In this document: in pieces, positions 60,574 to 61,789 of the stretch
How positions within the stretch are numbered: position 1 is the first letter of the stretch
Layout: each line of letters begins with the position of its first letter
DNA from: Methanomassiliicoccaceae archaeon
GTDB taxonomy: Archaea; Thermoplasmatota; Thermoplasmata; Methanomassiliicoccales; Methanomassiliicoccaceae
DNA: 64,000 nucleotides
Reading direction: 5' to 3'
NCBI GenBank assembly: GCA_963728405.1
Contig: CAVSJV010000005.1
Span: 1 to 64,000, forward strand
The notes under the pieces: generated by a model
What the model saw: the letters and a program-made list of their open reading frames with translations, nothing else
Told to the model about the DNA's origin: nothing
The model's database searches: none
Translations under genes and position numbers: made by a program

Positions 60574-60815
60574 GCTGATCGCCAAGTATGAGGCCTTCTA
60601 CGGACAACATGAAGTTCGCCCCGCTCCCCCCGCGCCACCGTCCCAACACAACGAGGTCTTGGCCCGGATCAAGAAGTTGAACAATCCGACGGACAATATG
60701 CAATATTATTCAAAATGGTGACCGGGAGCTCCTTAAGGAGCTTCAGTTAGGCCCCCTGTTAGGGCCCCCTTAGGAGGGGGCCGTCGGGTTTATAAAGTTC
60801 ATTTCCGGTAATTAT

Positions 60816-60905
60816 TTACCGGTGCCTGCCACCGGAGCTGATCTTGATGTAGGTCCAGGTCGCGGCAAGGAAGACAACAGATCCTGCGAAGTATACAAAT
60901 TCCAT
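60816..60905 (-). CDS. 29-aa hydrophobic peptide, copy A (MEFVYFAGSVVFLAATWTYIKISSGGRHR)
   Basis: SD GGGGGTGA upstream of ATG; paralog at 61329..61412 differs by synonymous and mostly conservative changes. Confidence 0.75.
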   Translation of the reverse strand: MEFVYFAGSVVFLAATWTYIKISSGGRHR

Positions 60906-61085
60906 CTTTTTCACCCCCTTCAACTTTCACCCCAGATGGAGGGATGAAGTTTATTTTGGACCGTTGACTATTTATATTTTTCTTATTAAATTATTCATAA
61001 GATTTTTAATCGATTTATCACATCTATGGCTGTTAAAAACGTCCCTTACTTGGCATTTGTCAGAAAATATGTATCAATTCTTATC
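60832..61085. repeat. ~255-bp tandem duplication unit A (peptide gene, leader, upstream block)
   Basis: Collinear with 61339..61594. Confidence 0.9.
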
Positions 61086-61328
61086 TAGCTTTTCGAATAT
61101 ATTCTAAGGTGATGCAGTGTGGTGCAATGTTCAACGGAAATCAGAGAAATTGCAGACATCGGTCCAGAGCGAACTGCCATCGAGCACCTATCGGTCTTCT
61201 CTATTAATGCCGTATGCATTCCTTTCGAAAAGGGCTTAATTCCTTAGCGAGGTTCGAGAAAAATATCGCGGTTAGGATCCCCTTTTGGGGGATCCGTAGA
61301 GTTTTAATCTCCTGACGTAGGTGCTGTT

Positions 61329-61412
61329 CTAGCGCCTGCCGGAGCTGTACTTGATGTAGGTCCAGCATGCAGCTAGGAATACAATCGATCCACTGAAGTA
61401 TATAAATTCCAC
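61329..61412 (-). CDS. 27-aa hydrophobic peptide, copy B (MEFIYFSGSIVFLAACWTYIKYSSGRR)
   Basis: SD GGAGGTGA upstream of GTG; paralog of 60816..60905. Confidence 0.75.
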   Translation of the reverse strand: MEFIYFSGSIVFLAACWTYIKYSSGRR

Positions 61413-61594
61413 CCTTTTCACCTCCTTCAACTTTCACCCCCGAAAGGGGGATGAACTTCATTTTGGATTCTCAACCTATTTATCATTATCTAATTAGATT
61501 ATTCATAAAATTATTTAGCAGATTTTGCCCATTTATGTGGTCGAAATACGTCCCTTATTTGGCATTTGTCAGAAAATATGTATTAATTCTTATC
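61339..61594. repeat. ~255-bp tandem duplication unit B
   Basis: Collinear with 60832..61085; includes a 47-bp block identical at 45/47 positions. Confidence 0.9.
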
Positions 61595-61789
61595 ATACTC
61601 GCCGGGGTGGCCTTCCAAAGCAACGTTGGAAGGGGGTTTATTGAAGAAAATCGCTCATTTTCTTCATCAATCTATCCATAACGGGCAGAGGACACGAGGA
61701 TCCAACATGGGCTGTAGGGGGCTTGCCAGAAATATATCGCCTCACAATATATTGTTATGAATGGCCAAAATATGATCAAGGACTATGTT

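Follow-up and report, generated by a model that had tools for sequence, protein, structure and literature searches.

A lineage-specific family of predicted membrane micro-proteins encoded beside the gene of a putative surface protein in Methanomassiliicoccaceae

KdpF, AcrZ, CydX and MgtS are accessory single-helix micro-proteins of larger membrane proteins; their partners are transporters or oxidases, usually encoded in the same operon. Bacterial type I toxin-antitoxin (TA) loci, among them Ibs/Sib, Ldr/Rdl, Hok/Sok and Fst, are treated in the overview by Fozo et al. 2010 (PMC2887945). For archaea, the spRNA24/asRNA94 locus of Methanosarcina mazei has been described (10.1101/2025.10.28.685009); its single-helix micro-protein sP24 has a beneficial phenotype under salt stress, and an antisense RNA was detected in experiments. 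Here, a stretch of 64,000 nucleotides (nt) from a Methanomassiliicoccaceae archaeon (the window, C5:1-64000; source genome 2.73 Mb, 58% G+C) was analysed, in which two tandem repeat units each carry a micro-protein gene. We document the coding nature, conservation and expression signals of these genes and their linkage to the gene of a large putative surface protein. The possibility that the peptide works in the membrane together with this protein is weighed against other readings, including the type I TA-like system proposed in an earlier note on the same DNA.

Two micro-protein genes and their family

The direct repeat units, ~255 nt each, lie between positions 60720 and 61610, are 80-83% identical and are spaced 507-509 nt apart. 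Three pairs of blocks were aligned: 60832-60960 with 61339-61467 (82%), 60968-61007 with 61476-61515 (83%) and 61005-61085 with 61514-61594 (80%). BLASTN aligned unit A with unit B over 258 nt at 80% identity (E = 7e-59), and both DNA and peptide searches of the 2.73-Mb genome returned these two copies only. Tandem ~255-bp units encoding peptides of 29 and 27 amino acids (aa) had been described in the earlier note, and both were found where it had placed them (Table 1). In the list of open reading frames (ORFs) of the window, they appear as TTG-extended frames of 35 and 33 aa. All five synonymous codon pairs named for the two copies were correct; the sequence adds a sixth, a Gly codon, and the copies further differ by five replacements.

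The ORFs are genuine protein genes under purifying selection. Over 22 ungapped codons and 136 pairs of copies, the mean proportion of silent differences (pS) was 0.61 and that of replacement differences (pN) 0.20. The median dN/dS was 0.18 over 114 of the 136 pairs, the other 22 pairs being saturated. Family ORFs comprise 27-34 residues with an uncharged core of 17-20 residues, and Kyte-Doolittle maxima over 15 residues ranged from 1.45 to 2.21 in the copies of genera g5 and g6, which are introduced below.

The family belongs to a single lineage and was found in just three genera of Methanomassiliicoccaceae. In a first DNA search, the unit turned up in 6 of the 10 other genomes available for the genus (g1), as against none of 30 genomes of other genera. 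With tblastn and a profile, the peptide was found in the source genome and in 8 of the 10 others of the genus, giving 17 copies in nine genomes. A profile of three subfamilies placed it in 16 of 261 genomes of the order: the source genome and 8 of 10 others in g1, all six in g5, the single one in g6 and none in other genera. A tBLASTn search had been suggested in the earlier note as a check on family size and context; the genes proved to lie next to that of the large putative surface protein. Copies A and B matched the first, genus profile at E = 9.5e-19 and 2.1e-17, respectively, and the three-subfamily profile at 1.4e-16 and 4.9e-15.

Each locus holds 1-3 tandem copies, and 28 copies were examined in total (17 from g1 and 11 from g5 and g6). 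In the latter two genera, one or two small ORFs of 26-34 codons follow the large gene and share the promoter box, hairpin and Shine-Dalgarno (SD) sequence of the g1 copies. Their peptides have diverged, and the three subfamilies are alignable with each other. The basic C-terminal tail noted earlier is present in g1; it is not conserved, being missing in the other two genera, and the two g6 copies lack charged residues altogether.

When 1.84 billion protein representatives were searched with a profile, the family matches were limited to five proteins of 29-33 aa. Two large repetitive proteins also matched (4221 aa with 41 stretches and 1138 aa with 15 stretches) and were rejected as spurious; the 1138-aa protein was inspected and is a low-complexity repeat. 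No NCBIfam family matched the micro-protein, the Pfam search gave a weak, irrelevant match to YrhK in 2 of 14 members (E = 0.02), and PADLOC returned no family for 25 members. Plasmid and phage collections searched with tblastn contained no micro-protein match. The best feature score in Protein Atlas was 0.84, to unnamed clusters of 32-34 aa; this is no more than a lead, and nothing here is built on it. The literature searched, beyond which some may exist, contained no paper dealing with type I toxins or small ORFs of Methanomassiliicoccales.

Six weak matches of the first profile outside the genus (E 0.001-0.005) were all dropped; the wider profile brought up none of them again at E <= 0.001. 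Five of them are merely 11-12 profile positions within open frames of 164-279 aa, and the sixth, in G018, has no SD sequence and lies in unrelated sequence. Of two weak matches of the wider profile, the one on G015:C10 falls inside a 673-aa frame and was judged spurious. The other, on G023:C11, was kept as plausible; a piece of the large gene, at a contig end, lies ~290 nt upstream of it.

The stop codon of copy B is TAG (61329-61331). An in-frame TAG also occurs in a paralog of the large protein (G022:C10:38787-40103). Some TAG codons are known to be translated as pyrrolysine in members of this order.

Linkage to the gene of a large protein

Micro-protein and full-length large protein occur together in 16 of the 261 genomes of the order, and neither occurs in the other 245. 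In all 16, one or more micro-protein genes lie within a few hundred nt downstream of the large gene, on the same strand. Within Methanomassiliicoccaceae, the large protein was found in 16 of 24 genomes (8 of 10 and the source genome in g1, 6/6 in g5, 1/1 in g6 and 0/6 in g2, g3 and g4 together). The adjacency is kept across three genera, with the large protein down to 35-43% identity. Both genes are missing from one g1 genome, G001, although it is 99% complete. There, the flanking genes, MetF and the conserved gene that elsewhere lies beyond the large gene, are ~110 nt apart, which indicates that the cassette is cleanly absent.

From the constant position just downstream and the joint gain and loss, we infer a role of the micro-protein in the membrane together with the surface protein. 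We consider the chances about even that the peptide spans the membrane as a single helix, is highly expressed and acts with the membrane anchor or the assembly of the large protein. Two independently transcribed genes would supply an abundant single-pass membrane micro-protein of 27-29 residues, with the tandem copies raising its dosage. The micro-protein might pack against the single membrane helix of the large protein or, alternatively, help to anchor, assemble or stabilise it. In favour of this, the predicted N-terminal membrane helix of the large protein offers a possible contact for a single-helix micro-protein.

In the seven syntenic loci first compared, the ORF of the large gene encodes 655-694 aa on the same strand, with the micro-protein gene directly downstream. 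The 655-aa ORF is acidic and cysteine-rich (110 Asp+Glu, 20 Lys+Arg and 27 Cys). An AlphaFold model from a 14-row alignment (predicted local distance difference test, pLDDT, 81; predicted template-modelling score, pTM, 0.50) comprised an N-terminal helix at residues 2-20, a disordered acidic linker at residues 21-64 and an all-beta part from residue 70 to the end. According to the model, the large protein is an N-terminally membrane-anchored surface protein of predicted beta-sandwich domains. Foldseek returned generic Ig-like arrays (adhesins, integrin legs, pilins and one S-layer protein) with query-normalised template-modelling scores of 0.09-0.16. No Pfam match was obtained at E <= 0.01, with noise at E <= 10, and PDB sequences gave no match.

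As a query, the large protein matched 25 of the 261 genomes, 16 of which have full-length orthologs. Of these, 14 are intact, one is broken into two neighbouring parts and one is truncated by contig ends. The remaining nine genomes (G026, G035, G086, G096, G104, G112, G118, G126 and G128), from two other families of the order, share residues ~32-358 only, inside frames of up to 2702 aa. The N-terminal beta-sandwich part therefore appears to be a shared surface-protein module, the full-length architecture being restricted.

The start of the large gene varies between genomes. Upstream of the stretch encoding the membrane helix (63808-63925, minus strand) there is no ATG, GTG or TTG, and the first canonical start, GTG at 63808, would remove the helix. 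The aligned start position holds ATG in G007, G009 and G010, GTG in G015, TTA in G003, and ATA in the window (63854-63856) and in G002, G004, G005 and G008. Judging from these codons, the gene would either use a non-canonical start codon or have lost the anchor in the ATA and TTA genomes.

Several points weigh against a joint function of the two proteins. The 16 genomes are close kin, and independent events are few (three genera, the absence from G001 and the absence from one 67%-complete genome); neighbouring genes may also disappear jointly without any functional tie. The promoters of the micro-protein genes and a T-rich stretch after the large gene predict that they do not form an operon with it. 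G005 carries a third copy elsewhere, at an unrelated locus away from any large-protein gene. The subfamilies differ in the positions of charges, so membrane orientation may not be conserved. A complex prediction for the large protein of G009 with its micro-protein gave a score of 0.23 (mark 0.32; controls not run) and counts neither way.

Some of these observations would suit a stand-alone small membrane protein of the stress or envelope type, such as sP24 or bacterial YohP, acting on the membrane or on a different partner; its adjacency to the surface-protein gene would then be inherited synteny of no functional significance. The micro-protein genes have their own promoter and 3' end signals, and the unlinked copy of G005 (L016 7990-8240, G005:C2) retains the promoter box, leader hairpin and SD sequence. 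The gene order of the locus, with the MetF cluster on one side and conserved genes on the other, is kept throughout the genus, which points to generally high synteny. sP24 provides a precedent for archaeal single-helix micro-proteins with stress roles of their own (10.1101/2025.10.28.685009). However, a stand-alone role has to contend with a distribution that coincides with that of the large protein in all 261 genomes of the order, and with an adjacency that survives three genera despite the divergence of the large protein. On balance, we regard it as possible but doubtful, and favour a joint function of micro-protein and surface protein in the membrane.

In the seven syntenic loci, the micro-protein locus is convergent with a MetF/MetV/MvhD/HdrA-like cluster. 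In the window, genes at 56619-59738 (plus strand) encode a ferredoxin-domain protein, an MvhD/FlpD-like protein, a DUF5981 (MetV-like) protein and methylenetetrahydrofolate reductase, and they are conserved beside the locus genus-wide. The convergent neighbour at 59920-60721 (plus strand) is an ortholog of a 264-266-aa protein in G002, G003 and G010 and belongs to no Pfam family. It is read in two frames, residues 1-209 and 209-266, with a break near 60545 that is either a frameshift or a sequencing error.

Expression signals and the antisense proposal

The signals surrounding the two ORFs are listed in Table 1. Across the three genera, an SD heptamer of the same class lies 3-7 nt ahead of the start in 28 of 28 copies, and the strong SD reported earlier for each ORF was confirmed, 6 nt from the start. 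The promoter box is kept in 17/17 genus copies, where its 5' end precedes the start codon by 71-82 nt, and is embedded in a promoter region of ~70 nt that is conserved in their alignment. From the usual archaeal spacing between TATA box and transcription start, the mRNA is predicted to begin ~40 nt before the start codon, and this predicted 5' end coincides with a C-run/G-run hairpin.

Table 1. Positions of the micro-protein genes, their signals and the linked large gene in the window (BRE, transcription factor B recognition element; UTR, untranslated region)
Feature	Position	Strand	Remarks
Micro-protein gene, copy A	60816-60905 (ORF without stop 60819-60905)	minus	29 codons and TAA; ATG at 60903-60905
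Micro-protein gene, copy B	61329-61412 (ORF without stop 61332-61412)	minus	27 codons and TAG; GTG at 61410-61412
SD sequence, copy A	60912-60918	minus	6 nt ahead of start
SD sequence, copy B	61419-61425	minus	6 nt ahead of start
Sense promoter box (BRE/TATA-like 11-mer), copy A	60969-60979	minus	5' end 74 nt before start
Sense promoter box, copy B	61477-61487	minus	5' end 75 nt before start
5' leader hairpin (C-run/G-run), copy A	60926-60948	minus	RNA folds
5' leader hairpin, copy B	61433-61455	minus	RNA folds
3' UTR element, copy A	60752-60794	minus	CAAACC-type motif then GC hairpin 60763-60782; conserved motif and stem
3' UTR element, copy B	61265-61307	minus	hairpin 61275-61295; conserved motif and stem
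Large surface-protein gene (~670 aa)	61841-63856	minus	directly upstream of the micro-protein genes; ORF and in-frame extension with membrane helix

The leader hairpin is present in 16/17 genus copies and, by eye, in 11/11 copies of the other two genera. Covariation was seen in 0 of 3 pairs among the genus copies; loop length ranges from ~2 to 7 nt, a variation more in keeping with an RNA hairpin than with a DNA operator of fixed spacing. The 5' arm of the leader has two possible pairing partners, the adjacent G-run and the SD copy, and the minimum-energy fold was SD-proximal in unit A and adjacent in unit B. Folding of both units thus bears out the alternative pairing proposed from the sequence.

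The 3' element occurs in 16/17 genus copies, 20-28 nt past the stop codon, and incorporates GC hairpins at 60763-60782 and 61275-61295, within the flanking stretches given in the earlier note. Its stem has 8 bp, with a loop of four or five bases, and compensatory changes were found in 5 of 7 predicted pairs. A covariance model of the element found only the two micro-protein genes in the source genome (150 of 715 candidates scored). Such structured ends, with a 3' stem that covaries and is specific to these genes, and a short predicted transcript with its own promoter could also belong to what is chiefly an RNA gene, a structured small RNA of ~190 nt, perhaps of dual function, with functional stem-loops and a secondary ORF. 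Against this, the substitutions in the ORF are protein-like, a perfect SD stands at the correct distance in every copy, and the 3' element is absent from g5 and g6, where ORF, SD and 5' hairpin persist. No Rfam family matched at gathering score in the whole 64-kb window. We consider an RNA gene very improbable.

The unlinked G005 copy differs at its 3' end, where a short GC hairpin followed by a T-run takes the place of the family element. A second hairpin at ~60726-60747 comes after the convergent plus-strand gene. RNAalifold on 16 full-length units gave local helices only and no long-range 5'-3' pairing. In many copies, within 60800-60840 and 61315-61350 and at the corresponding place in relatives, the G+C-rich end of the ORF can form a hairpin with the beginning of the 3' UTR, and the stop codon lies in or near its loop. 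The z-scores of this hairpin against shuffles were only -3.9 to +1.5, and it is not claimed.

Other traits of the locus bring to mind a type I TA-like system, in which a membrane-damaging peptide would be controlled by a cis-antisense RNA running from just past the stop codon to past the leader hairpin, as in Ibs/Sib and Ldr/Rdl. The peptide is small and hydrophobic with one predicted membrane helix, the copies are in tandem and the taxonomic range is narrow. Moreover, a TATA-like octamer lies on the opposite strand 19 nt past the stop codon of copy A, where it overlaps the conserved 3' motif. The antisense TATA strings pointed out earlier do exist (60789-60796 and 61302-61308, plus strand), but relatives do not share them. 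On the antisense strand, 5-55 nt past the stop codon, a generic TATA-like octamer was found in 1 of 28 copies, copy A of the window, a result that tests conservation of the signal and not the presence of an RNA. The generic TTTAWATA matrix is a blunt detector and also misses most sense promoters of the family (10/28). With the family's own promoter matrix (17 copies), an antisense box was found at the proposed site in 0/17 copies and anywhere in 2/17, ~60 nt past the stop codon and beyond the 3' hairpin. The T-rich antisense end proposed to follow the hairpin did not hold up either: an antisense oligo-T run of at least five is not conserved and shrinks to three T in most relatives. The locus fails the one testable type I hallmark, a conserved antisense gene.

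The structure of the leader was also considered. The SD sequence is predicted to be mostly paired in 26 of 28 full-length mRNAs, and the C-run in the copy A leader can pair with the SD copy rather than with the adjacent G-run. However, the mean unpaired fraction of the SD was 0.22 in native sequences versus 0.27 with shuffled flanks (native lower in 20/28). Such pairing is close to what base composition gives and provides no evidence of evolved occlusion.

Further evidence does not favour a toxin. The basic tail is restricted to one genus, Pfam, NCBIfam and PADLOC models gave no toxin-family match, the genes are inherited vertically and in synteny under purifying selection, and the plasmid and phage searches were negative. 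An upstream block of 47 nt, described below, is not complementary to the mRNA beyond shuffles. Taken together, the proposal of an archaeal type I TA-like system was not supported, and we judge it unlikely. A variant of it would make these the first archaeal type I TA-like loci, silenced by an antisense or structural RNA without a conserved promoter signal and stabilising the adjacent variable surface-protein cassette. The evidence argues against this variant, and we rate it as quite unlikely. The other suggestion of the earlier note, regulated membrane micro-proteins, is supported by the purifying selection, the occurrence in 16 genomes and the conserved promoter, 5' hairpin and SD.

The 47-nt block (61039-61085, with its twin at 61548-61594) is nearly identical between the units, versus 80% identity overall, and sits ~135-180 nt upstream of copy A. 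The nearest relative has a recognisable version ahead of one of its copies, and a shorter core occurs in a few others. No complementarity to the micro-protein mRNA was detected beyond that of shuffles (z -1.5 to +2.0). The block may serve to bind a regulator or may represent a small transcript running in the opposite direction. A short plus-strand ORF of 20 aa without an SD (61026-61088) overlaps it. A search for a shared promoter regulon with an nhmmer profile of the 17 promoter regions returned the two sites of the locus and one weak match (E = 0.004) in front of a glycosyltransferase-like gene, which gives no regulon lead.

Significance and comparison with known systems

Archaeal small membrane proteins are badly under-annotated, and very few have a functional lead. 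The signals of the family described here are unusually clear, from promoter, leader hairpin and SD to the covarying 3' element and purifying selection, and it has a concrete, testable candidate partner, a lineage-specific, predicted multi-beta-sandwich surface protein. The envelope of Methanomassiliicoccus is poorly understood, which makes a conserved pair of surface protein and micro-protein a reasonable entry point; for M. luminyensis, a possible second membrane has been suggested (PMC4243693). The locus also illustrates that the look of a type I toxin, with a small hydrophobic ORF, tandem units and hairpins, is insufficient without a conserved antisense signal.

With bacterial type I TA loci, the locus shares a hydrophobic single-helix peptide of <35 residues, tandem intergenic units, a strong SD, a structured leader and a narrow phylogenetic range. 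In contrast to them, it has no conserved antisense promoter or terminator, no sequence relation to known toxin families and no evidence of evolved SD occlusion; its charged tail is not conserved, and it is strictly and vertically linked to one neighbouring gene.

Among archaea, the closest precedent for a membrane micro-protein under antisense control is sP24. Both are single-helix micro-proteins of methanogens with a short transcript of their own and a lineage-restricted distribution. Unlike sP24, the micro-protein described here shows no indication of an antisense RNA, and the two are likened by description, not by sequence.

KdpF, AcrZ, CydX and MgtS resemble the micro-protein in size (25-50 residues), in having one membrane helix with small residues conserved along it, and in the linkage of the gene to that of a larger membrane-anchored protein. 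They differ in the kind of partner, as the candidate here is a predicted extracellular multi-beta-sandwich protein with a single anchor helix and not a transporter or oxidase. The genes described here also have their own promoters and occur in 1-3 tandem copies. The micro-protein is a member of no described family. At most, the locus would appear to resemble the bacterial accessory single-helix micro-proteins and, in general terms, sP24.

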